Source: a virus
Virus record (IMG/VR): IMGVR_UViG_3300049927_000065
Coordinates: 1 to 46,066 of that record
Length of the DNA: 46,066 nucleotides
Direction: 5' to 3' (one strand)
Shown: one piece after another, positions 132-46,066 of the stretch
How positions within the stretch are numbered: position 1 is the stretch's first letter
Layout of the letters: every line of letters starts with the position of its first letter
Position numbers and translations under genes: made by a program
The notes under the pieces: generated by a model
What the model was told of the DNA's origin: nothing
The model's database searches: none
The model's input: only the letters and a program-made list of their open reading frames with translations

Positions 132-171
132 AAAATCATGTGTACGACGCGCGCGCGAGGATCTTATCGGC

Positions 172-953: not shown

Positions 954-1112
954 GTGGCTCGTAGGGCGCCTGGCGGTCAGCGCCTACCTGTTGCCTGTAT
1001 GCCACAGTGTTGCTTAGAGACCGGGGGTGGGGGTCGGTCGGGATTGGCGCGCTCGCGGCTGCGGAGGGTGAATACCTGTTCGTGAGGTACACGGCCGGTT
1101 TCAGATCGGCCT

Positions 1113-1187: not shown

Positions 1188-1200
1188 TGAGAGTAGCAGT

Positions 1201-1755: not shown

Positions 1756-1901
1756 CCGAGCGGGAAGCCCTCCAGCAGGAATACTACAAAGCCCGTCGCG
1801 AGCGCATGGCGGCGAAGGAATACTACGACGCGACGGTGTGCGAGGAACAACGATTGGCGCAGCGTATCTGGAAACTTCTGCGCCCGGCCGATGATGCCTG
1901 A
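1752..1901 (+). CDS. 49-aa micro-ORF between terS and terL
   Basis: Hand-translated as MTEREALQQEYYKARRERMAAKEYYDATVCEEQRLAQRIWKLLRPADDA. It has an ATGA overlap with the terS stop and overlaps the terL start by 11 nt. GC3 is about 73%. Confidence 0.45.
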   Translation: MTEREALQQEYYKARRERMAAKEYYDATVCEEQRLAQRIWKLLRPADDA

Positions 1902-3387: not shown

Positions 3388-3516
3388 CACGTAAGTCGAA
3401 GTGTGCGATATATGTCGAGCTCCGTTCCTCCTGCGGGGCGGGTGGGTGTGCGCCTTTGCTCCTCGCGGTGCGGCGCCGGGCAGGATTTCATTTCAGGGGG
3501 CAGGAGAGAACACCGC

Positions 3517-3990
3517 ATGGCGATGACCATTCTACCACGGGACGACCCGCGCTTCCCGAAGGGTGGCCCCGACCCGGAGAACGATCAGCTTTCCCGGCAG
3601 CAGCGCGCCCACGCAGCCAAGAAGGATGAGCGCGAGAAGTTCACTTCCGAGACCGTCAGCATCGCGGTCGGCCCAAAGGCGACCAAGATGGATGTTGTCC
3701 TTTGTTGGCCTAGTTCGGCGCGGATCGTCGAGGAAGCCGACCCCGAGGATGAACTCGGCAATGTGCGGCGGTCGCGCATCTGGACCGGCGGCAAATACAT
3801 CTTCGCAGTGTACGCCAACAATCTGCCATGGCACGCGGCCGACCGGGCCGAATGGGAAGCCGGCGCCCGAAACGCGATCGAGAAATTCGCCGCGATCCGC
3901 GGCCTCACGATCACCAGCGGCCCCCGGCAGGAAGATACGAATAGATACAACATCATGGCCGAAACGCGGGAGGAAATCCGTGACCACTGA
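3517..3990 (+). CDS. Hypothetical protein (157 aa)
   Basis: ATG 3517 is preceded by GGGGGCAGGAGAG. No motif recognised. Confidence 0.6.
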   Translation: MAMTILPRDDPRFPKGGPDPENDQLSRQQRAHAAKKDEREKFTSETVSIAVGPKATKMDVVLCWPSSARIVEEADPEDELGNVRRSRIWTGGKYIFAVYANNLPWHAADRAEWEAGARNAIEKFAAIRGLTITSGPRQEDTNRYNIMAETREEIRDH

Positions 3991-6691: not shown

Positions 6692-7516
6692 ATGCCCGAT
6701 CCGACTTGGTTCTCAACGCTCGATGCGGACACGCAGGCGCACATCACCGGCAAGGGATGGGAGAAGCTCGAACCCGCTGCCGCCGCCGCCGAGGCGTCCA
6801 AGGCGCACCTCGCCGCGCAGAAGTTCATCGGCGTTCCCGCCGAGCAGTTGCTCAAGCTGCCGAAGGACGCTGCCGACCCCACCTTTCAGGCGGCCTACGA
6901 TCGCATCTTTGGCATGGTCACGCCGACCACGGCGGACGCTTACAAGTTTGATGGGGTCAAGTTCAAGGACGGTTCCGAACTCGACGCCGGGGACGTGGAC
7001 TTTGTTCGCAACCTCGCGGTGAAGTTCAAGCTCCCGACTACGGTTGCCGCGGGTATTGCCGCCGATCTGGCCGCGCGCTCGGACACCGCCGATGGGGAAG
7101 CTGCGGCCGCGGTCGAGACAACCAAGGCGGCGAACAACGCCTATCTGCGCGCGGCCTACGGGGCCGATCATGACTTCAAATTGTTCGGGGCGCAGCGCGC
7201 CGTCGAGGCCAGCGGCCTTCCGGCGTCGATCCTCGATCACATCATGACGCTGCCCCAGGAGGAGTATCGCAAAGGCGTGGATGCGCTCGTTGCCCTCGGG
7301 CAGCGCATGAACGAGGTGCCGATGCATCGAGGCACCGGGTCGCCAATCGTCGATCCGACCCTCGGATTGACCCCGGATGCCGCTGCCGAGCGCCTGAAAG
7401 CATTCACCACGGATGTTGGGCTGCGCGCCAAGTTTCTCGCGAACGATACCGAGACGGTGGCGAATTGGACGAAGCTGACCTCGATCATCGCGGGCGGCCG
7501 GGTGGCGCCGCGATGA
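6692..7516 (+). CDS. Putative scaffolding protein
   Basis: 274 aa, Ala/Asp/Lys-rich and apparently helical. Sits between portal and capsid as in T7 (gp9 position). Confidence 0.55.
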   Translation: MPDPTWFSTLDADTQAHITGKGWEKLEPAAAAAEASKAHLAAQKFIGVPAEQLLKLPKDAADPTFQAAYDRIFGMVTPTTADAYKFDGVKFKDGSELDAGDVDFVRNLAVKFKLPTTVAAGIAADLAARSDTADGEAAAAVETTKAANNAYLRAAYGADHDFKLFGAQRAVEASGLPASILDHIMTLPQEEYRKGVDALVALGQRMNEVPMHRGTGSPIVDPTLGLTPDAAAERLKAFTTDVGLRAKFLANDTETVANWTKLTSIIAGGRVAPR

Positions 7517-7713
7517 AGACGGTCATTCGGACCTTCGAGCCTGATTGGGCCTATCAGCACCCGAGCAGACAGGCAGACCCATACGAGCTTATCGGGATCG
7601 CGGTGGACCACCACGGCAAGGAGCTGTTTGTCACGGTGCAGGATAGCCCGTATATCATCGCGGGTGCCCTTGAAGCTATCGCATGCGCCATTCGGAGAAC
7701 TTGGATCATATGA
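7513..7713 (+). CDS. Hypothetical protein (66 aa)
   Basis: ATGA overlap with the scaffold stop at 7513-7516. Confidence 0.5.
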   Translation: MKTVIRTFEPDWAYQHPSRQADPYELIGIAVDHHGKELFVTVQDSPYIIAGALEAIACAIRRTWII

Positions 7714-8069
7714 CCGCCGGTCAGATTGTCTATGTGCAGGACCACCCATCCCGCACGCGATACATGCGGCAGATACAGCTTATCGCCGGGCTGATCACGC
7801 GTTCGACTGATTATTATGTCACGGCCGAGCATTGGGGACGGATCATCGCCGAGTTGGACGCACAGTACAGCGACGCGCTGATGGATCCGACAAAGCCGGC
7901 GCCGTGGAAGCCGCATCCCAACGAACCGTTCGTATTCGGGATGCACGACCCGAAATTGCGGGTCATCAACGCCGGCACGGATGACGAGAAGGTCGTTTGG
8001 TTGCTGAACGAGCATCCCGCGGCCGTGGCGGAATTTGGCGTGCGGCGCGATCGGCTAAGGACAGGCTGA
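7710..8069 (+). CDS. Hypothetical protein (119 aa)
   Basis: ATGA overlap at 7710-7713. An alternative start exists at 7683. Confidence 0.55.
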   Translation: MTAGQIVYVQDHPSRTRYMRQIQLIAGLITRSTDYYVTAEHWGRIIAELDAQYSDALMDPTKPAPWKPHPNEPFVFGMHDPKLRVINAGTDDEKVVWLLNEHPAAVAEFGVRRDRLRTG

Positions 8070-8448: not shown

Positions 8449-8552
8449 AGACATTCGGTCCACAACCCTTGGAGGGGGCGGACCTAGCATAGGCCCCCGG
8501 AAATGGACAAGGCTGGCACGAAGTCGGTCAACCAATTCAGAGGATCGGGTCG

Positions 8553-9509
8553 ATGGCCCCCAATTACGGCGCAAACCCCTACGAAATCGAAATGCTCACT
8601 GTGCAGTACACGTCCAAGCTGGACATGCTGCTGCAACAGATGGTCTCCAAGCTGCGTGGTCTCGTCGACGTCGGTTCGTACACCGGCAAGGCGGCGTCGC
8701 CGGTCAACCAGATCGGTGTTCTGGAATTCAAGCAGCCGGGCAGCCGGTACGGACCCCTGGTCCCCCAAATTCCCCAGGAAACCCGTCGTTGGGTGTTCCC
8801 GAACGATCGCGATATCGCGGTTCTCGTTGACAAGTTCGATGAGCTACGGTCCATCGTCGATCCGAAGCCCGGCATCAGTGGTGCAATCGCCGCCGCCGGC
8901 GGCCGGTATTTCGATGACCTGATCATCAACGCGCTGAACGGCACCGCCTCGACGGGTGTCGACAGCTCGAACTATTCCACGGAGAGCTTCGCCTCGACGG
9001 TTTCGACCTCGGGTGGATACCTCGTCGCGGACACGTTCGGTGCCTCGGGTTCCACGGGCATGACCTATCCGAAGTTCGTCGAGGCCTGGCGGGTCATGCG
9101 ACGCGCCCAGGTCGACCTCGACGCGGAGCGGCCGGTCTGCTTGATCGCGTCCCAGCAGGAGAGCGACCTGAAGAAGCAGCAGGAGGTAATCTCCCGCGAG
9201 TACAGCGATACCGTCGTTGTGCAGAACGGGCGAGTGCCGAGCATCGCCGGCTTCGATCTGGTGGTCACCGAGCGGCTGAACTCCAGTTCGTCCACCACGT
9301 TGCGGAACTGTCTGGCGTTCGTGCGCTCGGGCATCCACCTCGGGTTGTGGCAGGACATGATGATCAAGATCGACAACCGGGTCGATCTGACCAGCCAGCC
9401 GTGGCAGATTTACGCCATGCTGTCGGCAGGCGCGACCCGAACCCAGTTGTTCAAGGTCGTCCAGATCAACTGTGCCGATACCACCGGGTTCGATCCGACC
9501 GCCCCGTAA
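8553..9509 (+). CDS. Major capsid protein, T7 gp10-like
   Basis: 318 aa. By eye it is collinear with T7 gp10: SYTGKAASPVNQIG matches ISSGKSAQFPVLG, and the C-terminal QIYAMLSAGATR matches AKYAMGHGGLR. A strong hairpin follows the gene. Confidence 0.85.
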   Translation: MAPNYGANPYEIEMLTVQYTSKLDMLLQQMVSKLRGLVDVGSYTGKAASPVNQIGVLEFKQPGSRYGPLVPQIPQETRRWVFPNDRDIAVLVDKFDELRSIVDPKPGISGAIAAAGGRYFDDLIINALNGTASTGVDSSNYSTESFASTVSTSGGYLVADTFGASGSTGMTYPKFVEAWRVMRRAQVDLDAERPVCLIASQQESDLKKQQEVISREYSDTVVVQNGRVPSIAGFDLVVTERLNSSSSTTLRNCLAFVRSGIHLGLWQDMMIKIDNRVDLTSQPWQIYAMLSAGATRTQLFKVVQINCADTTGFDPTAP

Positions 9510-9516
9510 TCGAGTA

Positions 9517-9542
9517 GGAGCGCCTTCGGGCGCTCCGCTCTT
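9517..9542 (+). terminator. Hairpin / partial intrinsic terminator after the capsid gene
   Basis: GGAGCGCC-TTCG-GGCGCTCC: an 8-bp GC stem with a UUCG loop, followed by GCTCTT, a weak U tract. Confidence 0.55.
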
Positions 9543-9553
9543 GAGGAACTGCA

Positions 9554-10105
9554 ATGACTGTTCAAGCAAATCTTCTCTCCCCGGCGATTACGAGCCTCAA
9601 CGCTACCCCTCCTGTCCGCACGTCGGCTGGGTTCGGTGGCGCTGGCGTTCTTCGTTCGGTCGTTGGCTCGGTCGCCGCCCTGACGGACACCTACACCGCG
9701 GGGGGCATCCTTCGTATGGTGCGGGTGCCCTCGAACGCGATGATCCAGGAAGTTTATTGGGGCGTCGCAGCGAGCACCACCACGTTCGATTGTGACATCG
9801 GGGTCTACTACAGCAACGGCACCGATGGCACCTCGCCGGCAAATGTCGCCGCGGCGAATACCACGATCAGCGCGGCGTTGTTCGGCTCTGCGGTGGACAT
9901 GCACACCGCCAGCACGACCGGGTGGAAATCGGCCACCTTTGAGGCGGGCACGTTTCTCCCCGCGGCGTGCATCTTGCCCTTGTGGAAGGCGGCCGGGCTG
10001 TCGTTCGATCCGGGCGGGTTCCTCGACATCTGCTTCACCAACACGTCGACCACCAGCGGCGCCCCCGTGCCGTCGTGCCGGGTCGATTACGTCATGCCGG
10101 TATAA
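9554..10105 (+). CDS. Hypothetical virion protein (183 aa)
   Basis: ATG preceded by GAGGAA. Ser/Thr/Gly-rich and beta-rich in character. Sits between capsid and adaptor genes. Confidence 0.6.
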   Translation: MTVQANLLSPAITSLNATPPVRTSAGFGGAGVLRSVVGSVAALTDTYTAGGILRMVRVPSNAMIQEVYWGVAASTTTFDCDIGVYYSNGTDGTSPANVAAANTTISAALFGSAVDMHTASTTGWKSATFEAGTFLPAACILPLWKAAGLSFDPGGFLDICFTNTSTTSGAPVPSCRVDYVMPV

Positions 10106-10114
10106 GGAACGAAC

Positions 10115-10786
10115 ATGTTCAGCCTCCTTCCCGCAAATTTCGTCCCGCTCGCGGGGCAAGTTCGGAACCCAACGGTCGAGAGCAATTCGGACGGCACGAA
10201 TGCCGTGATGTCGCTGTCGCGCGAAGGCGCGCAGCACGTCCAGCAAATCCACGGTCAGTGGTATGCCGCCGCTCGCCGGGGGAACCTGTTTATCGCCTCG
10301 ACGTTGGCGGCCGGCGTGACGCTCCCGGTGGAAGACACTACCCAGCTTGCGTCGACCGCGGGCATCGTCAACCCGATCACCTCCGGTGTCATTCTGGAGC
10401 TGGTTGGGCTTATGATCAGCAACACCACGATCGACGTGGCGGTGAAGCCGAATGTCGTCTGCTTCCAGAAAAACCTGTCAACCTCCGGTGGCCCGCCGAC
10501 TTCGGTTACGGCCCTGACGGCGCATTCGCAGCCCCTCAGCCTCGGCGCCACGACTGCGAAGTGTGTGGCCCATTCGGTCGCGACCTTCACGAACTCGGTC
10601 GAAATGACCCCGCGTCTCAATCTCATCCCCAGCATTTCGACCGCCGTTGGCACGGGTTCGGCGGCGTGGTTCCAGTTCAACGGCGAAGTGACGATGGGGC
10701 CAGATACCGCGATGGCGATCGTCAACAGCGTGACGGCCATCGCTGGGCACCAGCTCACCTACATCTGGGCCGAGTGGCCGGTCTAA
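10115..10786 (+). CDS. Hypothetical virion protein (223 aa)
   Basis: AAGGAACGAAC-ATG. Located in the structural operon. Confidence 0.6.
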   Translation: MFSLLPANFVPLAGQVRNPTVESNSDGTNAVMSLSREGAQHVQQIHGQWYAAARRGNLFIASTLAAGVTLPVEDTTQLASTAGIVNPITSGVILELVGLMISNTTIDVAVKPNVVCFQKNLSTSGGPPTSVTALTAHSQPLSLGATTAKCVAHSVATFTNSVEMTPRLNLIPSISTAVGTGSAAWFQFNGEVTMGPDTAMAIVNSVTAIAGHQLTYIWAEWPV

Positions 10787-24924: not shown

Positions 24925-25496
24925 TGCCCCCACCTGACATCCGCATTCGCGGCATCCGCACGCCTCTTCCTTCCGGCTACGTGCTAGGGCGCATCAGCCC
25001 CGGCACGGGCGATACGGAATTGATCGACCTAGGCAAGATCGCCTCGCATGTCGCGGCGAGCGGCCAGGTCGCGGTCCCGTCGAGCATTTCGCCCCCGCTC
25101 GCGGCCAGCGGCGTCACGCCTGGCAGCTATACTCTCACCAGCCTCACCGTGTCCACGCTGGGCATCATTACGGCTGCGACGAGCGGCACGTTGGCGAGTG
25201 CAAAACTATGGGTGGGGAACGGAAGTAGCGTGCCCACGGCGGTCAGCCTCTCGGGCGATGCGACGCTCGCGAACACAGGCGCGCTCACCTTGGCGACGGT
25301 GAATGCAAACGTCGGCAGTTTCACCAATACGAGTATGACCGTGAATGCAAAAGGCCTTGTAACAGCGGCTTCTAGCGGCGCTGCTGTTACTGCCCCAAAC
25401 GGTATGCTGCCCTTGGTCACGGGCGATACAACCCCAGGAGACCAACCATTCTTTGTCACGGACGGGGCCGGACAGTGCATCGGAGTACCACTATGA
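24924..25496 (+). CDS. Tail fibre protein 1 (tail-attachment N-terminus)
   Basis: TAATG-coupled. Carries the fibre repeat VNANVGSFTNTSMTVNAKGLVTAASSG, shared with 26540..27376. Confidence 0.7.
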   Translation: MPPPDIRIRGIRTPLPSGYVLGRISPGTGDTELIDLGKIASHVAASGQVAVPSSISPPLAASGVTPGSYTLTSLTVSTLGIITAATSGTLASAKLWVGNGSSVPTAVSLSGDATLANTGALTLATVNANVGSFTNTSMTVNAKGLVTAASSGAAVTAPNGMLPLVTGDTTPGDQPFFVTDGAGQCIGVPL

Positions 25497-26536
25497 GCCA
25501 GCAATACCTCTACTATGACACGGCCGTTCACGGCTATGTTGGTGTGTTAGAAATAGGAACAAACAATGACGGGTCCGCGGTATTGCCAGCGTCAACAACT
25601 ACCGCTGGCTGGGCGATATCGTCTAACTATTTTAATGACAACGGAGTAAATTTCTGGTCTACTGTTAATGGAGATAATCCCTCGTTAGCAAATCAGGGAT
25701 TTTATTGGCTTCAAAAGCTAACGGACACGACTAAATTTACTCTAGGACACATATACGGTGATCCAACATTCACCGAGTTTGACTACTATGTCAATGACAA
25801 CCCAGCGGGTTTTATCGGCGCCAGTGCCACAGAAATGTTTTTAGGAACGCCTAATAGCAATCCCTTTAATCACTACGTGAACAACGGCGATCTTACATTT
25901 TCGGTGGACCCCGGATTTAGTGTAACAATTTATGGCAGTACATCAGGAGGAATAAAGCTACAAGTGCCAGCAATGGCGGGAGCAAACACTTTAACTTTTC
26001 CAGCGGGAACAACGGATTTTAGCTCAACGGGGGGCGCATCACAAGTTGTCAAGCAAACTTCTGCCGGGGGTGCATTTACCACGGGTCAAGTAGCAACCTC
26101 TGAGGTTAAAACAACCAGCACCAACGATAACGCGGCCGCTGGGGGCATCGGGGAGTACATCAAATCGAACATCCCCATCGCCAGCAAGGTCGGCTTGTCG
26201 ACGGCGACGGCAAAAACAATCGCATCCGTTTCCTTGACTGCTGGCGATTGGGATGTCACCGGCACAGTCGCCTTCGCCCCCGATGCCGGCACACTGATCG
26301 TGGACATGAAGGGCGGGATAAGCCAAACCGACAACACGCTTCCCACACTCTCTGACACCGCGGCCTTGGTTGACGTCCCTCTTGCGCCGAGCGCGGGCGT
26401 CGGGGCGACGATACCCGTGGGTGTCTCACGATTGTCGCTCGCCGGCACTACGATAATCTATCTCGTAGCGCAGTGCACTTTCTCGGTCAGCACCAATTCC
26501 GCCTACGGTTTCATCAGCGCACGACGAAGGAGATAG
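25493..26536 (+). CDS. Tail fibre / receptor-binding protein 2 (mosaic, low-GC N-terminal two thirds)
   Basis: ATGA-coupled. The C-terminal block GIGEYI...SLTAGDWDVTG...AYGFISARRRR is a recurrent fibre-tip domain. GC of 25500-26040 is about 46% by line counts. Confidence 0.7.
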   Translation: MSQQYLYYDTAVHGYVGVLEIGTNNDGSAVLPASTTTAGWAISSNYFNDNGVNFWSTVNGDNPSLANQGFYWLQKLTDTTKFTLGHIYGDPTFTEFDYYVNDNPAGFIGASATEMFLGTPNSNPFNHYVNNGDLTFSVDPGFSVTIYGSTSGGIKLQVPAMAGANTLTFPAGTTDFSSTGGASQVVKQTSAGGAFTTGQVATSEVKTTSTNDNAAAGGIGEYIKSNIPIASKVGLSTATAKTIASVSLTAGDWDVTGTVAFAPDAGTLIVDMKGGISQTDNTLPTLSDTAALVDVPLAPSAGVGATIPVGVSRLSLAGTTIIYLVAQCTFSVSTNSAYGFISARRRR

Positions 26537-27377: not shown

Positions 27378-27602
27378 CTAATGGTATTGAAGGTCGATCA
27401 TCGCCGGCCACACGAATTGCTTGCCGGGGTCGAGCGGGGCAAAGTCTGCAGTCTTCCACACCCGGATACGAGCGATGTTCGGGCTTTCGTTCGCGTGGTC
27501 TAGGATATCCTGCACGCACGGCATGTCAGGGCAGCGCACGACTTGATGTTGCGGGTGCCCTGACATGCCGGATAGGAACAGCAGGACCACCACATACATC
27601 AC
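27378..27602 (-). CDS. Small secreted/membrane protein at the end of the lysis cassette
   Basis: N-terminal hydrophobic segment MYVVVLLFLSGMSG. The start (GTG 27602 or ATG 27599) overlaps the o-spanin stop. Confidence 0.5.
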   Translation of the reverse strand: MMYVVVLLFLSGMSGHPQHQVVRCPDMPCVQDILDHANESPNIARIRVWKTADFAPLDPGKQFVWPAMIDLQYH

Positions 27603-27913
27603 TTCACCGACAAGCCTTTATCGCGCCCGGTGTAGAAATCGACGGCGGCTTTGAAACGGAATTTGCAGCCGGCGAGCGCCGCGCGATCCGCTGCCCATCC
27701 GCGCTCCGCGGGGCCATCGTTCATGGCACCGTCCGGGATGGTGCTCGGCTCATCGCACGGTGCCGTCAGCGCCCCCGGAGGGGCGGCGTTCTGTAGCTCA
27801 ACGACCGGGCGGCTGTCCAGCTTGGCGGATGCGCCGCATGCTGTCAGCGTCATGACAAACGCGCTTGTCATTGCGAGCCGACAGGCGAGCGACTTCGGAC
27901 TTGAGGGACGCAT
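27599..27913 (-). CDS. o-spanin (outer-membrane lipoprotein, Rz1-like)
   Basis: Lipobox LTAC after a hydrophobic leader (MTSAFVMTLTAC-G). GGAGAAACGCA-ATG at 27913. The start is embedded out of frame in the i-spanin gene (overlapped architecture). Confidence 0.7.
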   Translation of the reverse strand: MRPSSPKSLACRLAMTSAFVMTLTACGASAKLDSRPVVELQNAAPPGALTAPCDEPSTIPDGAMNDGPAERGWAADRAALAGCKFRFKAAVDFYTGRDKGLSVK

Positions 27914-28190
27914 TGCGTTTCTCCGATGCAACAGCTTGGGCGAGAGAGGCCTCGGCCTCGCCTTCCGCCTTGGCGATGACCGCCTGACGCCGGGCGCTCT
28001 CGGCCGCCGTCAGCTTTTCCTGCGCGGCGACATACACGGCTACGGCCTGACGGCGCTCATGGACGATGAAACCCACGATCGCGCCGAAGGCCAGCAGACC
28101 GACGAGAACCGCCTGGCACGGCTTGCAGGACCGCACCTTGGCCATGAAGGGCAGCATGGGCAGAAGGTAGGGCAGCAGAAAGGCGATCAT
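27798..28190 (-). CDS. i-spanin (Rz-like)
   Basis: N-terminal TM segment(s) followed by a long Ala/Glu/Lys/Arg coiled-coil-like region. CGGAGGTTCC-ATG. Overlaps the o-spanin gene. Confidence 0.7.
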   Translation of the reverse strand: MIAFLLPYLLPMLPFMAKVRSCKPCQAVLVGLLAFGAIVGFIVHERRQAVAVYVAAQEKLTAAESARRQAVIAKAEGEAEASLAQAVASEKRNASLKSEVARLSARNDKRVCHDADSMRRIRQAGQPPGR

Positions 28191-28355: not shown

Positions 28356-29297
28356 TTAAGTGGCGCATTGATAACAGGGGTTGGCGCTCCATCCGTGGGG
28401 TAGGAGGTTGTTGAGCCATTCGTAGTTGCCCGCGCCGTCCGTACACCAAAAGCCGGTGTAGGTGTTGGTGGGCTCGTAGTAATCGTAAACGATACCGGAA
28501 CCCGCCACGGCGGGCCACCATGCCGGATTGTCGATCTTGTTGCCCGCGCCCGGCTGAGCGACCGTGATCAGCGTTCTGCTGTAGCCGTACACTGGACAGG
28601 ACCAGATGCCAAAACGAACCCATGTCGACGGGTCCCAACGGTTGATGGTTGACAGAACCCCACCGACGTAAACGAGTTTGGTGCCGTCTGGGCTGAACGC
28701 CGGCATGTCGCTTTCGGGGTAATTCGGGTCCGTATTAGGGGGGAGAAGGAATGGAATACCATATCCCGAAGTATTTACTGTGTAAATCTGTCGGCCATTA
28801 TTGGGGGAATTTGCGGCGAAAGCGCACAACGTACCGTCAGGGGAAATCGAACCCGGCTGCACTCCGTTAAGAGCGCTCGACAACGGATATAAGTAGGTTC
28901 CGTCTTCGTAAAGAACCCAAATGTCATCTCGCCCGGTTTGGGTGTTCCGAGCGTGGAAGATGATTTTGCCGGCGGCGTAAGATGGCCGAGCGATATTTGA
29001 CAACCCAGGAACCGTCGTGTACGCCAGATTCCCGGTGACGTGGTTGGACACCCCGATGGTCTTGCGATCGGCGGCTACGAACACCGATTTGTATATGTCG
29101 TTGCCAGCAGACCCGCGAGCGGCATCATACCCGTGGATATAGCCATTGGCATCCGTCCATCCCGGAATTTGGGTTGAGGACCAGTAATACTGAGTGTAAT
29201 AGTAGCTCCCAGACTGGTGAATGGTGGCCATAATGCCACTACCGTCATACCAGCACTTATCGAAGCCGACGTAGGAGTTGAAGTCGATGATTGCCAT
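28356..29297 (-). CDS. PD40/TolB-like beta-propeller protein
   Basis: 313 aa. PD40-type repeats SISPDGTLCAFAANSPNNGRQIYTV and PAFSPDGTKLVYVGG. GAAAGG lies upstream of ATG 29297. No N-terminal signal peptide. Local GC about 50%. Confidence 0.6.
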   Translation of the reverse strand: MAIIDFNSYVGFDKCWYDGSGIMATIHQSGSYYYTQYYWSSTQIPGWTDANGYIHGYDAARGSAGNDIYKSVFVAADRKTIGVSNHVTGNLAYTTVPGLSNIARPSYAAGKIIFHARNTQTGRDDIWVLYEDGTYLYPLSSALNGVQPGSISPDGTLCAFAANSPNNGRQIYTVNTSGYGIPFLLPPNTDPNYPESDMPAFSPDGTKLVYVGGVLSTINRWDPSTWVRFGIWSCPVYGYSRTLITVAQPGAGNKIDNPAWWPAVAGSGIVYDYYEPTNTYTGFWCTDGAGNYEWLNNLLPHGWSANPCYQCAT

Positions 29298-29301: not shown

Positions 29302-30162
29302 TTAACCTTTCTGTGAGCCGCCGTGACGGAGTTTCCAGACCACAAGGGCGACGGCGATTGAGGCGATCAGCATGATGGTGTCGATTTCCATGTGAACGCC
29401 GGTAAACATGGCTTGGAGCTTATCGAAGAGCTGCGTGCCGGACACGGCGAGAGTGCCGCCGATAGCCTTCTGGTGGCCCATCGTCCCGCCATCCGTCGCG
29501 GGGGCGGGCAGCTCCGCCACTACCGGAGGGTCAGCCGCCGGCCGCGGTGCCGGTGCGGCCTCCTCGTCGAGCCCGTCGTGAAAGGCCTTGGCGTAGCCAG
29601 CGATCATCGCGGCATGATCGCTGCCGTTGATGATGCGGCGTGCGCCATCCCAATCCTCATCGGTATCGTTGAAATATCGTTGCAGATTGACGCCCGAGAA
29701 GGTATCGCCCGGCTCGCCGGTCATTCCGTGGATCATGATCACAGCGGCGACCGCCGGTTCCATCGCGCGATCCGGCGCGCCGACCAGATCGATCCCGGTA
29801 AGTCGGGTCATTTTCTCGTAGTTCGTGCGCCCCGTGAGCTGAACGAACCCACGGCCGGCGAACTTCACCCCGTCGCCGGGGTTCACGTTTCCGAGCCGGC
29901 GGGCGAGTTCCGGGTTTTCCCCCTCGATGTCATAGCGCCGCTTGAAGTAGGCGTCGCCCCCGTACTCATGGACCGGCTGCATCGTGTGCGCGGTCTCGGC
30001 GTAGGTGGTGCCGAGCATGTAGCCCAACCAGCGCAGGTCGGTGGAGTTGGACGCCTCCCATGCGTCGAGAATGAAGTTGATCCCGTCGACCTGGGGCTGC
30101 TCGAAGCGCCCCCCGAATACGGAGACGCGGATGCTTGAAAAGAGTTTTCCCCGGTCGATCAT
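29302..30162 (-). CDS. Endolysin, glycoside hydrolase family 19-like, with C-terminal TM segment
   Basis: YAETAHTMQPVHEYGG...LGNVNPGDGVKFAGRGFVQLTGRTNY matches the GH19 catalytic core. A Pro-rich linker and the hydrophobic stretch TIMLIASIAVALVVW follow. Confidence 0.75.
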   Translation of the reverse strand: MIDRGKLFSSIRVSVFGGRFEQPQVDGINFILDAWEASNSTDLRWLGYMLGTTYAETAHTMQPVHEYGGDAYFKRRYDIEGENPELARRLGNVNPGDGVKFAGRGFVQLTGRTNYEKMTRLTGIDLVGAPDRAMEPAVAAVIMIHGMTGEPGDTFSGVNLQRYFNDTDEDWDGARRIINGSDHAAMIAGYAKAFHDGLDEEAAPAPRPAADPPVVAELPAPATDGGTMGHQKAIGGTLAVSGTQLFDKLQAMFTGVHMEIDTIMLIASIAVALVVWKLRHGGSQKG

Positions 30163-30233
30163 TTCTTGATCCCTTGTGAGAAGGCGAGCATGAGCGCGGC
30201 GAAAACGATGGCCGCGATGATGAGCGTGAACAT
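30159..30233 (-). CDS. 24-aa single-TM micro-ORF
   Basis: MFTLIIAAIVFAALMLAFSQGIKK. TGATG overlap with the holin stop and ATGA overlap with the endolysin start. Confidence 0.4.
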   Translation of the reverse strand: MFTLIIAAIVFAALMLAFSQGIKK

Positions 30234-30526
30234 CAGATCACCGCGATTAGTGCGACGATGGTTAGAATGAGCCCAGCACCGGATAGAAGCAGGATCAAAA
30301 AAGCTACTCGATCCTCCGCTATCAGCACCTCGCGCCGACGAACCACCCAATATAAGGTCTTCCACCGAATTCGCCATCTGCGGCCGGTATCGCTTTCCCA
30401 CAGGAGAACCGCGTACCATGCGACCGCGAACAGGGCGGCGAGAGGCGGCAAGACTTGACCTAGCACGCCCCCAAGGGCCGCGAGCGCGGCGCCATCAACA
30501 AACCATTCGTGACCTGGGCGAGACAT
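30233..30526 (-). CDS. Putative holin (97 aa, 2-3 TM segments)
   Basis: Hydrophobic stretches AALAALGGVLGQVLPPLAALFAVAWYAVLLW and VAFLILLLSGAGLILTIVALIAVI flank a highly basic loop. It is the first gene of the lysis block. No clear SD. Confidence 0.5.
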   Translation of the reverse strand: MSRPGHEWFVDGAALAALGGVLGQVLPPLAALFAVAWYAVLLWESDTGRRWRIRWKTLYWVVRRREVLIAEDRVAFLILLLSGAGLILTIVALIAVI

Positions 30527-30936: not shown

Positions 30937-31361
30937 GTGATCCTCCGCTTGCTAAAATGTGTATACAGACTCTCTTCCGAGAAGAAAACCGCATCCGCGA
31001 TTTTGTACATCAAATCCCAATCGTCGGGCTCGCGGTCGAAGAAGACAAACCCCGGCCGACCAGTGCCTATGAGCCAGCCCAACTCCAGATGAGCGGATTT
31101 ACCCGCGGGCAGAACGAGTAGCCCTGCGTCCGCGTCGGCAAGATGGTGCATGTCGAACCGGAAACTGTTGCCCGCGGCGCGGCCCCGCAATGCCTCGGCG
31201 TATGTGTCGCCCCGTTGCCGATGATACCGGCGCCATTGGAGATCCGCCTCGGGGCCACCCGCGTGCCAATCGTCAAACACATCATGGCCAAGATCACGCA
31301 AACCCTTGCCGATGTTAGGCACATGAGGGTTCTTGAGCGATCCCATCAGGTAGATTTTCAT
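30933..31361 (-). CDS. Nucleoside 2-deoxyribosyltransferase-like protein
   Basis: MKIYLMGSL at the N-terminus and LVLPAGKSAHLELGWLIGTGRP fit the Ndt/Rcl-superfamily pattern (N-terminal Rossmann strand plus catalytic Glu loop). Confidence 0.55.
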   Translation of the reverse strand: MKIYLMGSLKNPHVPNIGKGLRDLGHDVFDDWHAGGPEADLQWRRYHRQRGDTYAEALRGRAAGNSFRFDMHHLADADAGLLVLPAGKSAHLELGWLIGTGRPGFVFFDREPDDWDLMYKIADAVFFSEESLYTHFSKRRIT

Positions 31362-32497
31362 GCAGCCTCCAGCATTGATGGGTTGACAGTGTATCGGGCG
31401 ACTTCGCCGTGTTCGCGATGCAACACTATCGCCTTCATGTCCCGGCCGGCGCGGTATCCCTTGTTGGCCGCCCAGGCGTCAGCGGGGGCGAGGATACGGA
31501 AGCTCTCAACCGAGCAACCCTGGAAATCATAGTGCCTCTGCGTATGGACATGGCCGGTCCACCAATACCGATGTGACGTGGTGCCCCACAATTCCTTGCG
31601 GTCGTGAGCCATGATCATGGGCAGGTCGGCGATCTTCGCACCGTGCCCATGATGGACGCCTACAAGATTTTGCCCAAAGTCAAAGTAGTGAAAGTGCCGC
31701 GGAGAAGTGTCGACAGCGACGCGCGGGTTGTCTTCATAGATGTTGTGCAGAGCTTCCATAAGGAAGATGCTAGAAGCAAGATCGTGGTTGCCTATCTCCA
31801 CGATCACCAGGACTTCCTTATGCCGACGAGCCGCAGTCTCGATCGCACGACGCATTGTGCGTACCGCCGCCCGCACCATCTTGGGAAACCGCCCGTCGCT
31901 GTCGAGTATGTTGCGGCTCGTTGGTGTCACGGCGTCGAAGCTGTCGTAGTGCATGAAATCGCCGAGAAACACGACCGCGGCCCGGTCGCAGGCGGGCGTC
32001 ACCTCCGCGAGGTGGTCCATCGCGCCAGCCAACAGGCGCTCGCCGATTTCTAGGTCATAGCTCGCGCCCGTCTCATGCTTCCACGACAGCATGCCCATGT
32101 GATGATCGCCAACTGGATAACAGGCCATCAGGTCTTCGTTGGTGTCCTTGGGGGCATCGAGCGGCGCGGCTCGGGGTAGGTCTTCGGCGAGCGCCTTCGC
32201 CCACTCCTGTAGGTTGGCGATGCGCTGGGCGTCTTCCGGCTTCTCGATGATCCATTGCGCCCGAACGTCCCCGTCTGGCCCATACAGGGTGGACACGCGG
32301 GCGATTTTCGCTGGGTCCGGTACGTGCGGCACCTCGTCGGCAGCGCGGCCCGCGAGTACGAACGTCTCGCTTGTCGTCTCACCCGCACCATTGACCGTCC
32401 GCTTGGACAGCTTCATTTCCTGTGTGATCGCGCGACGACGTGCGTTCGCCCGCTCCCGCATCTGCTCGACTGTTTCACCTGTGCGTGGGGTTGGCAT
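31358..32497 (-). CDS. Calcineurin-like metallophosphoesterase
   Basis: Motifs GDHHMG, VVFLGDFMHYD, GNHD, VHHGHG and GHVH. ATG 32497 is coupled (TGATG) to the upstream small ORF. About 130 aa of unique N-terminal extension. Confidence 0.75.
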   Translation of the reverse strand: MPTPRTGETVEQMRERANARRRAITQEMKLSKRTVNGAGETTSETFVLAGRAADEVPHVPDPAKIARVSTLYGPDGDVRAQWIIEKPEDAQRIANLQEWAKALAEDLPRAAPLDAPKDTNEDLMACYPVGDHHMGMLSWKHETGASYDLEIGERLLAGAMDHLAEVTPACDRAAVVFLGDFMHYDSFDAVTPTSRNILDSDGRFPKMVRAAVRTMRRAIETAARRHKEVLVIVEIGNHDLASSIFLMEALHNIYEDNPRVAVDTSPRHFHYFDFGQNLVGVHHGHGAKIADLPMIMAHDRKELWGTTSHRYWWTGHVHTQRHYDFQGCSVESFRILAPADAWAANKGYRAGRDMKAIVLHREHGEVARYTVNPSMLEAA

Positions 32498-32679
32498 CAA
32501 CAATCGTCCTTTGTTCCTGGCAGCACGCCGTCGCCGGTAATCAGTTCATCGAGGGGTAGGGGTAGGGTTCGGTGGGTCGGGCCTCTGTGCCTTCTCCTCC
32601 ACGGCGTGCGCTGCCCACGTTTATAGTCGAGCCATTCCTCCTGATCCGCGAGGCGATCAAGCTGTAGAAATCGGGCCAT
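32497..32679 (-). CDS. Hypothetical protein (60 aa)
   Basis: GGAGG lies 9 nt upstream. The stop overlaps the next start. GC3 is only about 62%. Confidence 0.4.
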   Translation of the reverse strand: MARFLQLDRLADQEEWLDYKRGQRTPWRRRHRGPTHRTLPLPLDELITGDGVLPGTKDDC

Positions 32680-34076: not shown

Positions 34077-35696
34077 CTATTTCCTGTAACGCGCGTCAGC
34101 CCAGCTCTCGACGGCAATTGGCACCTTGATCCGCCGGCTGTAGGCGGTCTGTTCCGCCATGATCTGCTCATACGCCTTCTTGTCGCTGCGAGCAAGCGAT
34201 ATCTCACTCATGCACTCATCGTGGACCGTAAGTACGAGTGGAAATCCGTTCGCCTCCAGCCGGTGCATGGCCTCGCACAGAAATCCCCGTGCAATTTTCT
34301 GCACGACGTTCTCACAAAGTAATCCTCCGTAGGCGTAGACCGTCCGCCATTGGCCCTGCTTCATCGTCTGATAGCACCAGCACGGCCGGATGTCGGGCTT
34401 GTCCGCGGTGCTCCACGGCATTTTCTTTGCTGTCAAGCACGGATCGCGATACCACATGATCTGCCCGTCAGGGATGATACAGGCGAGCGCGTGCGGATAC
34501 CACTGGTAGGTGATGCCATACGCCTCACAACGCCCCTGCGTCTGCACGGCGCGCAGGGCGGCGTTCTCCAGAGCCCACCACAACTTCGGCACCTCGGGCG
34601 CCCACACCTCGCGATAGGCCCTTATGACACCCTGCGCGAACTCATCGGACATGTCGGGGCAATACCGATCCTTGAACTTCTGCCAGCCCATCTGAAAACC
34701 GCAGCCTAGAACAGTGTTCTTGCCGATCTGGCGCTGCGGCGCATGCTGCACCTTGTTGAACGACCCCTTGGGTGCCTGATAGATATCCTCGGCCATATCG
34801 AGATAGACGTCCTTGCCGGATGCCAGCAACGCGGTCTTGTCATGCTGACCGGCGAGCGCGAGCACGACGCGCATTTCGATCCCGGCGAAGTCTCCCGTGT
34901 TGAATTCATGCTCGTCCGCGGCAATGATCGCATGACGCAGACCGGAGGCTACCGCGGCGATCGGATCGCCGAACACCATATTGATGTAGTCGAGATTGCC
35001 CCCGAAGATCGCCGAGACAAGTGCGTCGGGGTCGTGGCCGCCCTCTATTTTCCCTCGGGGAAAATTTTGCGGCTGGAACAGCCGGCCAGTCCAGCGTCCG
35101 GGGCCTGCGCCATGGTACTGGAGGGTATACCGGACCCGTCCGTCTGCGTTGACACAGGCGAGCATGCGATGGAGCTTCTTGATGCTGGCGCTCCCGAGCA
35201 CTGCCCTAATCTCAAGCGCCCTCCGCACCCTCGGGGGCACCGTTTGTTGGTCAAGAGCAGAGGGCACCATTTCCAACTCGCCGGCTTCTTCATCGTCATC
35301 CTCATCGATCCCGAGCGCCTTGAGGTTTTCCTTACTCAAGCTGTCGATCGGGAAACCGTTGACCCCGCACCAAGCGGTGAGCTTCTGAACCTGTGTCATC
35401 TTGAGGCCACCTGTCAGCTCCGCGAACTCAGCGGCGAGCGGCTGACTGGCCTTGGCTACCACATCGAGACAGGCATGCACGTAGGGTAGGTCGATGCGTA
35501 GACCGCGCTGGTTGATGCGTTGGTCTAGCTCCCACACCCGGCGCTCATAGGGCGAGAGCGGGCCCACAGCGGCCCCTACGGCTATCTCCGTGCGACAATC
35601 CTGTACGCAGTATTCCCCGACGCGGCGCAGCGTCTCAGGTGTCCTATCATAGGTGCCCTTGACGAACCGCCTCCGCCATTCAGCCTGCGTTGTCAT
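34077..35696 (-). CDS. DNA polymerase I family A, C-terminal fragment (ExoIII motif plus polymerase domain)
   Basis: ExoIII-like YCVQD, motif A GDFAGIEMRV, motif B RQIGKNTVLGCGFQMG, motif C LTVHDE. The start overlaps the MTase stop (ATGA). Confidence 0.9.
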   Translation of the reverse strand: MTTQAEWRRRFVKGTYDRTPETLRRVGEYCVQDCRTEIAVGAAVGPLSPYERRVWELDQRINQRGLRIDLPYVHACLDVVAKASQPLAAEFAELTGGLKMTQVQKLTAWCGVNGFPIDSLSKENLKALGIDEDDDEEAGELEMVPSALDQQTVPPRVRRALEIRAVLGSASIKKLHRMLACVNADGRVRYTLQYHGAGPGRWTGRLFQPQNFPRGKIEGGHDPDALVSAIFGGNLDYINMVFGDPIAAVASGLRHAIIAADEHEFNTGDFAGIEMRVVLALAGQHDKTALLASGKDVYLDMAEDIYQAPKGSFNKVQHAPQRQIGKNTVLGCGFQMGWQKFKDRYCPDMSDEFAQGVIRAYREVWAPEVPKLWWALENAALRAVQTQGRCEAYGITYQWYPHALACIIPDGQIMWYRDPCLTAKKMPWSTADKPDIRPCWCYQTMKQGQWRTVYAYGGLLCENVVQKIARGFLCEAMHRLEANGFPLVLTVHDECMSEISLARSDKKAYEQIMAEQTAYSRRIKVPIAVESWADARYRK

Positions 35697-36208
35697 ATCT
35701 TACATTCTGCCATGCAAATTGTATCATTACGGCCGCCTCCGTGGGCAACGAGTAAAATTTCCTTGATCGCGTATCCGCGGCCCTTTCCCATGCCCGCGCT
35801 ATTCCAACCGAAAGATAAGACAATCCCGCCAGGGACGATCAGCGCGTCGAGGGCATCGCGAACTCGCCGGTATAGAGCACCATTCTGCGTGCCCGCCATT
35901 CCAACCTCGCGCCCAACACTCTTATAAACTTCGCTGATCTGACGGGGGCTATATGGCGGATCGAACAATCCTAAATCGCATAGAAATCCCCGCCTTGCTA
36001 TCTCAAGCAGAAAATCTTCGGCGTCCATATGATACCGCGCGGCAGTGTTCGGGGCTAGATCGTTCGTGAAACTCGCCCACGTCTTATTCCGCGCAAATGG
36101 ATCGATACTCCTAGTCGCTTCGCTCATGTACCGCCGCACAAAATCTCCGATTGGTCGGACGGAGAAGGTTTCTGCATTCGGCATCGCGAACACGCGAGAA
36201 AATATCAT
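35693..36208 (-). CDS. DNA amino-methyltransferase (N6-A or N4-C; DPPY motif)
   Basis: SIDPFARN (motif I-like) followed by LFDPPY (motif IV). ATG 36208 has ATGGAGAAACTGAT upstream and an ATGA overlap with the exo-fragment stop. An alternative start exists at 36226. Confidence 0.75.
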   Translation of the reverse strand: MIFSRVFAMPNAETFSVRPIGDFVRRYMSEATRSIDPFARNKTWASFTNDLAPNTAARYHMDAEDFLLEIARRGFLCDLGLFDPPYSPRQISEVYKSVGREVGMAGTQNGALYRRVRDALDALIVPGGIVLSFGWNSAGMGKGRGYAIKEILLVAHGGGRNDTICMAECKI

Positions 36209-36663
36209 ATCAGTTTCTCCATCCATGACACCATCGTCATCGGTTTTGACAACGATAAGGTGAGCTTGCGGCCGATCTTGTCCTTCTGCTCATCCACGCC
36301 CAGCACCTGGGCGGCCATGTCGAGCGCCATCGGGGCGCCCGTGTAGGCGCAGCGGGCCATAGTACAATCCCACCGCTCGATCGGGACTGGCGGCATACCG
36401 AGCTGGCCGACCATGATAAAGTGCCAGATGGCTTGCTCGAACGCGGCGTTGTGCGCCTCAAAGATCACGTCGGGGTTCTCCGCGAGCCCGCGCAGCATGA
36501 TCAGGAGGTGGTCATTCTGCCCCGGTATCCAGACCCATACGTGTTCCCCGCGGACCCAGGCAAGACAGAGGATTTCCGTGGTGGGGTCTTCGGCATAGCG
36601 CCAGGCACCCGCCTCGGACAGGTCGCAGTTCGATGCTGTCTCGAAGTCAAGGCAAATTTTCAT
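36205..36663 (-). CDS. DNA polymerase I family A, N-terminal fragment (3'-5' exonuclease ExoI/ExoII)
   Basis: ExoI LDFET and ExoII EAHNAAFE. It ends just after the conserved KDKIGRKLTLSLSKP block. Confidence 0.85.
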   Translation of the reverse strand: MKICLDFETASNCDLSEAGAWRYAEDPTTEILCLAWVRGEHVWVWIPGQNDHLLIMLRGLAENPDVIFEAHNAAFEQAIWHFIMVGQLGMPPVPIERWDCTMARCAYTGAPMALDMAAQVLGVDEQKDKIGRKLTLSLSKPMTMVSWMEKLI

Positions 36664-42827: not shown

Positions 42828-42857
42828 TTGACAAATCCTTGTATCCGTGCTCATAAA
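42828..42857 (+). promoter_or_regulatory. Sigma70-like promoter candidate for the primase gene
   Basis: TTGACA (42828-42833), an 18-nt spacer, then CATAAA (42852-42857). It lies in the divergent intergenic region. Confidence 0.35.
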
Positions 42858-42882
42858 GGGGGCTTCCCATTCAGGAGGGCGG

Positions 42883-44769
42883 ATGACCCCACGACATCAA
42901 GCCGCGTTGGCTTATGCTGCCCAAGGCATACCGATATTCCCAGTCGTTGAGCGCGGTAAAGCGCCCGCGACCGAGCACGGGTTCAAGGATGCCACCACTG
43001 ACCCGGCACTGATCAGCGCATGGTTTGCCATAGGAGACTGGAATATCGGCACCGAGCCCGGCGCCTCGAACCAGCTTGTGGTCGACATCGACAACAAGAA
43101 CGGCAAGGGGGGCTCGCGCGTGTGGGCCGATCTGTGCGCTGAGCATGGCGACCCGCCGGCCACGATGATCGTGCGAACACCCAACAACGGATGGCACATC
43201 TACTTCGAGGGGACCGCGCCTTCGGGAGCGGGCACGGAGCGCCGCGGCCTCGGTCCAGGGATCGATGCCCGGTCGATCGGGGGGTACGTGTTGCTGCCGC
43301 CCAGCGTGCTCCCTACGGGCGCCTACGAGATCGTGACGCCAGGGCCGGTTGCGCCCATGCCTACATGGATCAGCGCCCGGCTGGCCCACGTCGAGCATGT
43401 CGCGGCGCTGGCCCCCGAGAACGTCGTGGTCGACCCTGAGGGCATCGAGGCGTGGGCTGCGGCCCTGATCGAGCGCACCCTTGCCAGGGACGGCCCCGCC
43501 GAGATAGGAAGCGCGCTCAACGACCGGACATTTGCGCTCGCGGCCATGCTCAAGGATGGACCCGAAGCTGGCTACACGGTAAACATCGAGACTGCCGTTG
43601 CCTTGATGCGCGATCATTGGTCCGACGAAGCGCGCGTCGAGGACACGGTGCGCAACGCCTACCGCACGGGCGAGAACGAGCCCGGATGCGGGCCGATCGG
43701 CGACCCGACGCGCAAGTATGGCGACGCGGAATATCTGGCGGAAAAATGGTGGACGCCTCCCGCCGTAACCGAACTGGTAAACGGAGGATCGATCATGTTG
43801 AAGCCGGTGGATTGGATATGGCCCGGATGGCTGGCGCGCGGCAAGTTCCACATGCTTGGAGGCGAGGGCGGCGCTGGCAAGTCGACACTGTGCTTTACCC
43901 TCATGGCTACGATCACAGTCGGGGGCAAATGGCCTAATGGCGCTCAAGCGCCCAAGGGCGATGTGCTGATATGGTCGGGCGAGGATGATACAGCCGATAC
44001 CATCTTGACCCGCATCACCGCGGCGGGAGGCGACGTGCGCCGCGTATGGTTCCCCGGCAAGGTGGCCGGGATCCGCGCCTTTGACCCAGCGATCGACTTT
44101 CCGCTCATTTTCGAGGCATGCCGCAAGCTGCCAAACCTCCAGGTCATCATGGTCGACCCTATCGTCAGCGCGAGCCAAGGCGACAGCCACAAGAACGCCG
44201 AGACACGACGCGGACTGCAGCCGCTCGTCGACTTCGCCGAGCATGTCGGCGCCGCGGTCCTAGGCGTGACCCACTTCACCAAAAACACGCAAGGGCGTAG
44301 CCCCATCGAGCGCATCACAGGCTCACTCGCATTCGGCGCGCTGCCGCGCATTGTGTGGGGCGCCGAGAAAGAGGAAGACGAAGCAGCCCCACGCCGGCTG
44401 GTGCGTATCAAGAGCAATATCGGGGTCAGCGGCGGGGGGTTTGAATACACCTTGGAACAGACGCCTATCAGCGAAGCGATAACTGCGCAACGGGCTGTAT
44501 GGGGCAGGGTGCTGCAAGGAAGCGCACGCGAGCTTCTGGAAGCCAAGAGCGGCGGCCAAGGCGCCAAAGCTCAAGAATTCCTCGCCGCGGTCCTGGGCGA
44601 CGCTGGCAACGCCGGTATGTTGGTGAAGGACATCAAAGCCGCCGCCGCGGCGCACAGCATATCATGGTCGACGATCGAGCGGGCCAAAGCCAAAATGCCC
44701 CGCGTCCAAGCCAAGAAAAACCTGGGCGACGGGGCGCCATGGTATTGGGTGATGCCGCCTATTGGCTAG
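42883..44769 (+). CDS. Bifunctional primase-polymerase (Prim-Pol) fused to a RecA-like/AAA_25 NTPase
   Basis: GIPIFPV...GFKDATTD...VVDIDNKNG is the Prim-Pol N-terminal signature. Walker A is GGEGGAGKST. AGGAGGGCGG-ATG at 42883. Confidence 0.85.
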   Translation: MTPRHQAALAYAAQGIPIFPVVERGKAPATEHGFKDATTDPALISAWFAIGDWNIGTEPGASNQLVVDIDNKNGKGGSRVWADLCAEHGDPPATMIVRTPNNGWHIYFEGTAPSGAGTERRGLGPGIDARSIGGYVLLPPSVLPTGAYEIVTPGPVAPMPTWISARLAHVEHVAALAPENVVVDPEGIEAWAAALIERTLARDGPAEIGSALNDRTFALAAMLKDGPEAGYTVNIETAVALMRDHWSDEARVEDTVRNAYRTGENEPGCGPIGDPTRKYGDAEYLAEKWWTPPAVTELVNGGSIMLKPVDWIWPGWLARGKFHMLGGEGGAGKSTLCFTLMATITVGGKWPNGAQAPKGDVLIWSGEDDTADTILTRITAAGGDVRRVWFPGKVAGIRAFDPAIDFPLIFEACRKLPNLQVIMVDPIVSASQGDSHKNAETRRGLQPLVDFAEHVGAAVLGVTHFTKNTQGRSPIERITGSLAFGALPRIVWGAEKEEDEAAPRRLVRIKSNIGVSGGGFEYTLEQTPISEAITAQRAVWGRVLQGSARELLEAKSGGQGAKAQEFLAAVLGDAGNAGMLVKDIKAAAAAHSISWSTIERAKAKMPRVQAKKNLGDGAPWYWVMPPIG

Positions 44770-45939: not shown

Positions 45940-46066
45940 GGGTAAGACCATCACCGTCATAAAAAAGTGAGGGTTTCCGCCAACACCATCATATAGGCCC
46001 CTTATACAAAATTTGATGTTGTTACACACTTATAAGTAGAGTTAAATCTGATATGGGGTAAGACCA
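45940..46066. repeat. Terminal redundancy copy 2 (identical to 1-127)
   Basis: Same 127-nt string as the window start. The length equals a common assembler k-mer, so this may be a circularisation overlap rather than a physical DTR. Confidence 0.95.

Follow-up and report, generated by a model that had tools for sequence, protein, structure and literature searches.

A stand-alone PD40 beta-propeller encoded between the endolysin and spanin genes of a phage lysis cassette

What is a beta-propeller gene doing between the endolysin and spanin genes of a phage? The question is raised by IMG/VR virus record IMGVR_UViG_3300049927_000065, of which we analysed positions 1 to 46,066 (the window, meaning this whole stretch of 46,066 nucleotides). 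An earlier note, made from the sequence alone, had drawn attention to a TolB-like open reading frame (ORF) of low GC content packed into the lysis cassette, and had proposed that it is an acquired moron whose product targets the Tol-Pal system during lysis or blocks superinfection. We find that the protein is a predicted stand-alone PD40 propeller and is not TolB, that it belongs to a new and very small phage-only family, and that its gene is an accessory insertion into the cassette. What the propeller does there can be answered more tentatively: the reading we prefer is that of a leaderless binder made alongside the lysis proteins and freed by them.

The ORF is real. It runs on the minus strand and encodes 313 amino acids from an ATG, and both of its full-length homologues begin at the same M-[AT]-I. 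The protein matches Pfam PD40 (PF07676) at 27.7 bits against a gathering score of 20.9 (E 2.5e-6), a threshold passed by all three members of the family (27.7, 23.9 and 24.8 bits), and SPDG blade motifs of the PD40 type are present. Both PD40-like strings quoted in the earlier note are there, ISPDGTLCAFAANSPNNGRQIYTV at residues 151-174 and FSPDGTKLVYVGG at residues 201-213. An AlphaFold2 (AF2) model was built from a 36-sequence alignment and replaces a poor run on three sequences (predicted local distance difference test, pLDDT, 55.7). Its pLDDT is 74.1 and its predicted template modelling score (pTM) 0.78. The all-beta fold is made up of ~22 strands that form six groups, with blades 1 and 6 modelled at low confidence. 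The propeller domain fills the entire 313 residues. Foldseek searches of the PDB place TolB propellers on top (best E 2e-10, with values of ~1e-10 to 1e-9; TMq up to 0.61 over ~297 columns), at 13-15% identity, followed by S9-peptidase propellers and the stand-alone Agrobacterium ‘putative TolB’ 2ojh. Viral structure matches, taken from BFVD, are to generic WD40 and kelch propellers, including tail-fibre-like proteins. Structure prediction and Foldseek thus agree with the Pfam match on a PD40-type beta-propeller, as the earlier note had supposed. The protein is predicted to be a stand-alone six-bladed propeller, with ordinary central blades and with first two and last two blades that are specific to the family. 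An invariant patch comprises YPESDMP, GAGNK-DNP-WWP and SAN-CY.

The propeller has no recognisable means of export. Its N-terminus lacks any basic or hydrophobic segment, so that no signal peptide was found, and the maximum 10-residue hydropathy within the first 35 residues is 1.06, versus > 2.1 in most cellular PD40 matches. No transmembrane helix was detected either, there being no 19-residue window with a Kyte-Doolittle hydropathy > 1.6. A leader or transmembrane segment is absent from all three family members, and a signal-like hydrophobic start occurs in ~24 of the 33 cellular PD40 matches. Neither hydropathy nor searches of Pfam, PHROG and NCBIfam gave a lipobox, a transmembrane segment or a muralytic family match, and the propeller is therefore not a core holin, endolysin or spanin.

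Amino-acid composition also sets the protein apart. Charged residues (KRDE) make up 11-13% and aromatic residues (YWF) 13-15% of all three family members. The charged fraction is 6.5-14% in the tail and tail-fibre proteins of the window, 17-29% in the non-membrane proteins and enzymes of the propeller’s own strand, and 20.7 ± 3.3% (minimum 14.5%) in the 33 cellular PD40 matches. The composition is extracytoplasmic- or virion-like, and unlike that of the strand neighbours.

So, is it TolB? TolB carries a Sec signal peptide and an N-terminal alpha/beta domain, TolB_N (PF04052), that contacts TolA, and it is encoded in a tolQ-tolR-tolA-tolB-pal operon. The propeller is not TolB, because it has no leader, because TolB_N was not found (Pfam gives only PD40, and the precomputed domains do not include PF04052), because its scores against the NCBIfam TolB equivalogs TIGR02800 and NF002183 are 18.1 and 19.4 bits versus cutoffs of 343.15 and 405, and because its neighbours are holin, endolysin and spanin genes in a phage genome rather than the genes of a tol-pal operon. 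When its sequence profile was compared with the PDB, a Nostoc WD40-repeat protein (2ymu) outscored TolB. The label ‘TolB-like’ therefore holds for nothing more than the generic PD40 fold: the fold and the top structural matches bear it out, and the signal peptide, the TolB_N domain, the equivalog scores and the operon context do not.

The family is strikingly small. Among 5.8 billion protein clusters, a word-indexed search found two full-length homologues only, P0002 (50% identical) and P0003 (44%), each a singleton from a short Logan contig; the remaining matches cover 20-60% of the query. An exhaustive family-profile search of 1.84 billion representatives yielded 39,300 PD40-type matches, and an end-to-end match was obtained only within the family, with the best stretch of the other top matches lying mainly at positions ~105-215, which correspond to two PD40 blades. 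When the first 102 and last 98 residues alone were joined into a chimeric profile, a search of the 5.8e9 clusters recovered only the three members, even at E <= 1. Scans with family patterns of IMG/VR, of JGI metagenome contigs and of one genome per GTDB species added no members, giving either nothing or generic cellular PD40 proteins only (L043 was among the loci checked). The phage collection INPHARED contains no match to the propeller by DNA or by tblastn, the PHROGs contain none, structural families included, and the PADLOC defence and anti-defence families contain none. Altogether the family has three members among ~15 billion proteins. It is a new, very small, phage-only family of the well-known PD40 superfamily, in a position that is unusual and not obligatory. 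The remark in the earlier note that no lysis cassette with a TolB-like or PD40 gene had been described is borne out, in that we found no paper, phage record or PHROG that describes one.

The features of the cassette are collected in Table 1. As the earlier note had it, the propeller gene is packed between lysis genes. Only 4 nt separate the endolysin TAA from the propeller ATG. Between the propeller TAA and a small Pro-rich ORF there are 13 nt, within which lies an AGGGA Shine-Dalgarno-like motif; the stop codon of this ORF overlaps the i-spanin start as ATGA. A programmed frameshift that would fuse endolysin and propeller was considered and rejected, given the +1 offset and 4-nt gap in the window versus an ATGA overlap in the related locus L001, and given that no slippery motif is common to the two.

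Table 1. Genes of the lysis cassette in the window
Feature	Coordinates	Strand	Basis or remark
Stand-alone PD40 beta-propeller, predicted six-bladed, leaderless, 313 aa (P0001)	28356-29297	-	Pfam PD40, AF2, Foldseek
Endolysin, 286 aa: GH19 domain at aa ~1-198, Pro/Ala-rich linker, ~62-aa C-terminal membrane tail	29302-30162	-	
Pro-rich 51-aa ORF, no transmembrane segment	28187-28342	-	Couples propeller gene (13-nt gap) to i-spanin gene (ATGA overlap)
i-spanin (inner-membrane spanin), 130 aa: N-terminal transmembrane segment at aa ~21-46, Ala/Glu/Arg-rich helix-like periplasmic part	27798-28190	-	
o-spanin (outer-membrane spanin) lipoprotein, lipobox LTAC	27599-27931	-	Overlaps 3' end of i-spanin gene
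Holin candidate, 97 aa, 2-3 hydrophobic segments	30233-30526	-	Hydropathy
Possible 24-aa mini-ORF with a single transmembrane segment, MFTLIIAAIVFAALMLAFSQGIKK	30159-30233	-	Translation and hydropathy of longer ORF 30159-30419

The neighbouring genes can be assigned with varying ease. The endolysin matches PHROG 181 (endolysin) at E 4e-37, and its residues 1-198 are 51% identical to GH19 endolysins of Rhizobium phages; although its Pfam GH19 match is below the gathering score (22.7 vs 25.5 bits), the GH19 assignment made in the earlier note holds because of the PHROG match and the Rhizobium-phage identity. Its membrane tail spans residues ~225-286, with a hydrophobic core at ~255-281 by hydropathy. 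The o-spanin gives weak matches to Pfam LysC (E 2e-4) and to PHROG 456, an Rz-like spanin (E 2.9e-4), and is 50% identical to the o-spanin of a related phage, L006; the i-spanin is 41% identical to its L006 counterpart, and the holin candidate is 38% identical over 66 residues (E 2e-6) to the ORF directly upstream of the L006 endolysin. The 51-aa ORF has no family match in searches of Pfam, PHROG, NCBIfam or PADLOC, and may be a partner of the propeller. The mini-ORF starts directly beside the holin stop codon or in overlap with it, and its own stop codon runs into the endolysin start. It is uncertain whether this is a real gene; it may be an unannotated small component of the lysis cassette.

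How widely is the arrangement shared? The contig L001, which encodes P0002, keeps the order endolysin, propeller (with an ATGA overlap), 43-aa ORF and i-spanin. The 43-aa ORF (L001 2356-2487) and the 51-aa ORF of the window share PPAADAPK(H/K)E (pairwise E 7e-6), and in both phages the small Pro-rich ORF is coupled to the i-spanin start; the first 25 residues of the L001 gene that follows it match the window i-spanin at E 8e-5. The L001 endolysin (693-1400) has a GH24 catalytic domain, versus GH19 in the window, on a ~62-aa C-terminal membrane tail that is 62% identical between the two; the catalytic domain has therefore been swapped on a conserved tail. Searches with this tail of metagenome contigs, IMG/VR, the protein database and the phage collection gave no match, and the i-spanin, used as a handle for related cassettes, gave none.

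The third family member sits elsewhere. In L002, P0003 is encoded after a metallophosphatase-like gene and before an unrelated 57-aa ORF and the start of a DUF5664-like gene. No endolysin lies next to it within the 2.3-kb contig, so the link to lysis is not obligatory, and no counterpart of the 51-aa ORF was found in L002, this ORF being kept only between the window and L001. The sequencing runs behind L001 and L002 are SRR26786819 and SRR22868765.

Relatives of the phage were found via the exonuclease-like gene at 31358-32503 (PHROG 704), which led to 34 IMG/VR loci with identities of up to 74%. The earlier note had called for a survey of related cassettes, and those we inspected run without the propeller. 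The L006/L007 cassette comprises holin, GH24 endolysin, a 74-aa transmembrane protein and i/o-spanin; that of L008 a holin-like protein, GH19 endolysin, a 108-aa transmembrane protein and i/o-spanin; and that of L039 holin, an endolysin of GH24 and signal-anchor-release (SAR) type, and i/o-spanin. A family hidden Markov model, applied at E <= 10 to 3,548 ORFs of the 39 fetched loci, detected no propeller besides those of L001 and L002. Because related cassettes run without it, the propeller, with its small downstream ORF, is an accessory insertion and not a core lysis function. The possibility that the endolysin tail of the window was formerly a separate small transmembrane gene, like that of L006 or L008, was ruled out, as there is no similarity.

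The closest IMG/VR relatives, L006/L007 (74% in the exonuclease-like protein), carry a tyrosine-integrase-like gene, and some relatives are temperate. Their lysis cassette is opposite in orientation to the replication genes and lies after the tail-fibre genes, so the order of modules is inverted relative to the window; the L006 stretches concerned are 6907-8013 and 8520-10199.

Is the gene a moron? Its GC content is 55.2% versus 61.1% for the window, at the 2.3rd percentile of 942-nt windows, so the low GC reported in the earlier note is real; the genome value of ~63% given there is too high, however, and the 60-nt lines of the gene range from 41.7% to as much as 73.3%. GC at third codon positions (GC3) is 0.662, versus a mean of 0.72 ± 0.07 for 36 genes (0.9 standard deviations below), and the deficit lies mainly at first codon positions (GC1, 0.487), as in tail-fibre genes. 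The low GC therefore derives mostly from a protein rich in Asn, Tyr, Thr, Ser, Gly and Trp, more than from foreign DNA. The case for recent acquisition from low GC is weak, and this per-codon-position analysis led us to downgrade a recent foreign origin. Morons of the Hendrix type have their own promoter and terminator for autonomous expression. Neither was found at the borders of the propeller gene, where the flanking gaps of only 4 nt and 13 nt leave no room for them, and the only promoter-like signals are weak 9/12 consensus hits inside the coding sequence. The absence of the gene from related cassettes agrees with the moron proposal; given the missing promoter and terminator, it is not a classical moron.

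What, then, might the propeller do? We lean, with a confidence a little short of even, towards a leaderless extracytoplasmic-type binder that is made late with the lysis proteins and freed by them. The gene would be accessory and dispensable, expressed late and translated together with the lysis genes, and its product a soluble leaderless propeller that serves as a ligand-binding scaffold rather than as a known enzyme. The propeller would build up in the cytoplasm and reach its target only once the holin-endolysin-spanin system opens the cell. The freed protein would then work outside the cytoplasm, on a component of the envelope or cell surface or in the medium, as lysis-released cargo, with phage lysis substituting for the signal peptide carried by most cellular PD40 relatives. 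We prefer this reading because of the fold, the lack of a leader, the coupling within the cassette, the order kept in L001, the related cassettes that do without the gene, the extracytoplasmic-type composition and the precedent of leaderless cargo: leaderless proteins released by holin-endolysin-spanin cassettes include the cargo of the type 10 secretion system (T10SS) and Shiga toxin (PMC10847048). Release by lysis, an extracytoplasmic site of action and a binding function are what we infer from this combination. Several points weigh against it. The argument from composition is statistical and would fit a virion protein too. The synteny comprises two phages that share a whole block (endolysin tail, small ORF and i-spanin), and may stem from common descent rather than from selection. 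The L002 copy, lying between metallophosphatase-like and DUF5664-like genes, means that the cassette position is not required. The N-terminal ~70 and C-terminal ~20 residues of the AF2 model are poorly modelled, and cytoplasmic PD40 and WD40 propellers exist.

A propeller that never leaves the cell would fit several of the same observations. The protein could serve in the cytoplasm as an accessory protein-interaction scaffold, in anti-defence or host takeover for instance, and its gene could have come to lie in the cassette only incidentally, at a junction that tolerates insertions. The varying positions of the family members, the L002 copy near genes of the nucleotide-metabolism or repair type, the missing export signal and the related cassettes without a propeller would all be expected on such an account. 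We nevertheless consider it unlikely, as the composition differs from that of every cytoplasmic enzyme of the same genome and from that of cellular PD40 proteins, PADLOC and PHROG gave no match, and the tight translational coupling within the cassette is kept in L001. Composition would also be explained if the propeller were associated with the virion, for example as an accessory module for receptor binding or decoration, docked on tail fibres and encoded at the border of the late region: the protein resembles the window’s tail and tail-fibre proteins in this respect, late expression is expected, the gene lies ~1 kb from convergently transcribed tail-fibre genes, and propellers occur in phage receptor-binding proteins, as the BFVD matches to tail-fibre-like proteins illustrate. 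The gene is, however, inside the lysis cassette on the strand opposite to all structural genes. No domain for attachment to a tail can be recognised in the protein, whose N- and C-terminal parts are without relatives, and it matches no structural PHROG family. The L002 neighbours are non-structural, and nothing similar is found among the tail genes of the relatives. A virion module is improbable on this balance.

The proposal closest to the earlier note is that of a TolB mimic that enters the periplasm once the holin has triggered and helps lysis there by binding Pal, or another tether between outer membrane and peptidoglycan, thereby loosening the outer membrane for the spanins, or that blocks superinfection via Tol-Pal. 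The best structural matches are indeed TolB propellers, TolB-Pal complexes included (E 2e-10, TM-score 0.61), and in two phages the gene is found between those for endolysin and spanins. The resemblance is, however, generic to PD40 (13-15% identity, 18-19 bits vs 343-405, with 2ymu outscoring TolB), and the protein has neither the TolB N-domain nor a leader. Related phages manage lysis with a cassette of this type that has no propeller, and one family member, in L002, is outside such a cassette. Access to the periplasm is a further difficulty. The pairing of pinholins with SAR endolysins is well known, and if the holin pores are small, as this pairing would suggest, a 34-kDa protein would be barred from the periplasm before rupture. 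The C-terminal membrane tail of the endolysin, for its part, resembles that of LysAP, which is reported to be Sec-exported (PMC8879335). Targeting of Tol-Pal is speculation, and we regard the mimic as quite improbable. A more ambitious relative of our preferred reading is that the propeller, perhaps together with the 51-aa Pro-rich ORF, defines a new class of lysis-cassette protein: a binder, delivered by the holin or by lysis, that attacks a tether of the outer membrane (Pal, OmpA-like proteins or covalently linked outer-membrane proteins), or a mask of receptors on debris. This would be a long shot.

What follows if any of this is right? At present the propeller represents a well-delimited PD40 family that is phage-only and very rare, numbering three sequences, and whose gene neighbourhood is reproducible; nothing of general consequence follows from it so far. 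The gene is a rare accessory with a possible part in lysis, in an arrangement that the window and L001 share. Were the propeller to serve lysis or a post-lysis step, an accessory activity would have gone unrecognised in Gram-negative phage lysis cassettes. Release as a leaderless binder, if true, would be a phage example of lysis delivering a leaderless extracytoplasmic protein, following the logic of the T10SS, and the new-class reading, if true, would extend the holin-endolysin-spanin scheme by a further function in an alphaproteobacteria-like podophage lineage.

The genome that carries the cassette appears to be whole. The contig ends are identical over 127 bp (1-127 and 45940-46066), which indicates a complete genome of ~45.9 kb that is circularly assembled or terminally redundant. 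The window codes for terminase, portal, major capsid protein, tail proteins, DNA polymerase, helicase, primase and exonuclease. Its major capsid protein is ~36% identical to those of the Ralstonia podophages DU_RP_II and RpY1 and ~35% identical to that of pelagiphage HTVC010P. Genes for tRNAs, sought in the window as a clue to the host, were not found.

Three other regions of the genome deserve mention. A tail-fibre-like gene at 25475-26536 (+) contains the deepest GC dip of the region (43% at 25500-25950; GC3 0.54), exceeding that of the propeller gene, and the C-terminal part of its product is 36% identical to an L023 protein; it looks like an exchanged receptor-binding module. The DNA polymerase is apparently split (34077-36663, -), with ORF 36205-36663 matching positions 673-790 of PHROG 17 and ORF 34077-35696 matching positions 804-1231. 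A DNA methyltransferase ORF of low GC (35693-36226; 52.6%, GC3 0.54) lies between the two polymerase parts and overlaps both. A 640-aa primase/polymerase-like gene at 42847-44769 (+) adjoins the long run of minus-strand replication genes and overlaps a 457-aa minus-strand ORF (42871-44244) that is without a family match.

Several known systems resemble parts of this locus. The C-terminal propeller of TolB (PDB 2hqs, 2w8b, 4pwz, 7mx5) is likewise a six-bladed PD40 propeller with SPDG blade motifs, but TolB is ~430 residues long versus 313 here, the identity is 13-15%, and only two blades can be aligned by sequence. Stand-alone bacterial PD40 propellers of the COG0823 type (‘Tol biopolymer transport system component’; 2ojh, P0004-P0036) share the single-domain architecture at ~280-400 residues; P0004-P0036 are 30-38% identical to the phage propeller across its two central blades, and 2ojh aligns with a TMt of 0.63. 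These cellular proteins mostly have a signal-like hydrophobic start and ~21% charged residues, whereas in the phage family a leader is missing, charged residues make up 11-13%, and the N- and C-terminal thirds are without relatives.

For the rest of the cassette, the nearest parallels are found among phage endolysins and lysis-dependent secretion. Endolysins with a C-terminal transmembrane segment are known, including that of Hafnia phage Enc34. LysAP of Acidovorax phage AP1, with a GH24 domain, a transmembrane segment at residues 194-216 and reported Sec-dependent export (PMC8879335), has the same layout of N-terminal catalytic domain and C-terminal transmembrane segment as the endolysin next to the propeller and its L001 counterpart, although the AP1 cassette is described as holin and endolysin only. 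The T10SS of Serratia and Yersinia and the release of Shiga toxin by lambdoid lysis likewise involve proteins that have no export signal and are encoded with or beside a lysis cassette (PMC10847048). There the cargo is a toxin or a chitinase; here, a bona fide phage cassette carries a propeller of the binding type, for which we infer a similar release.

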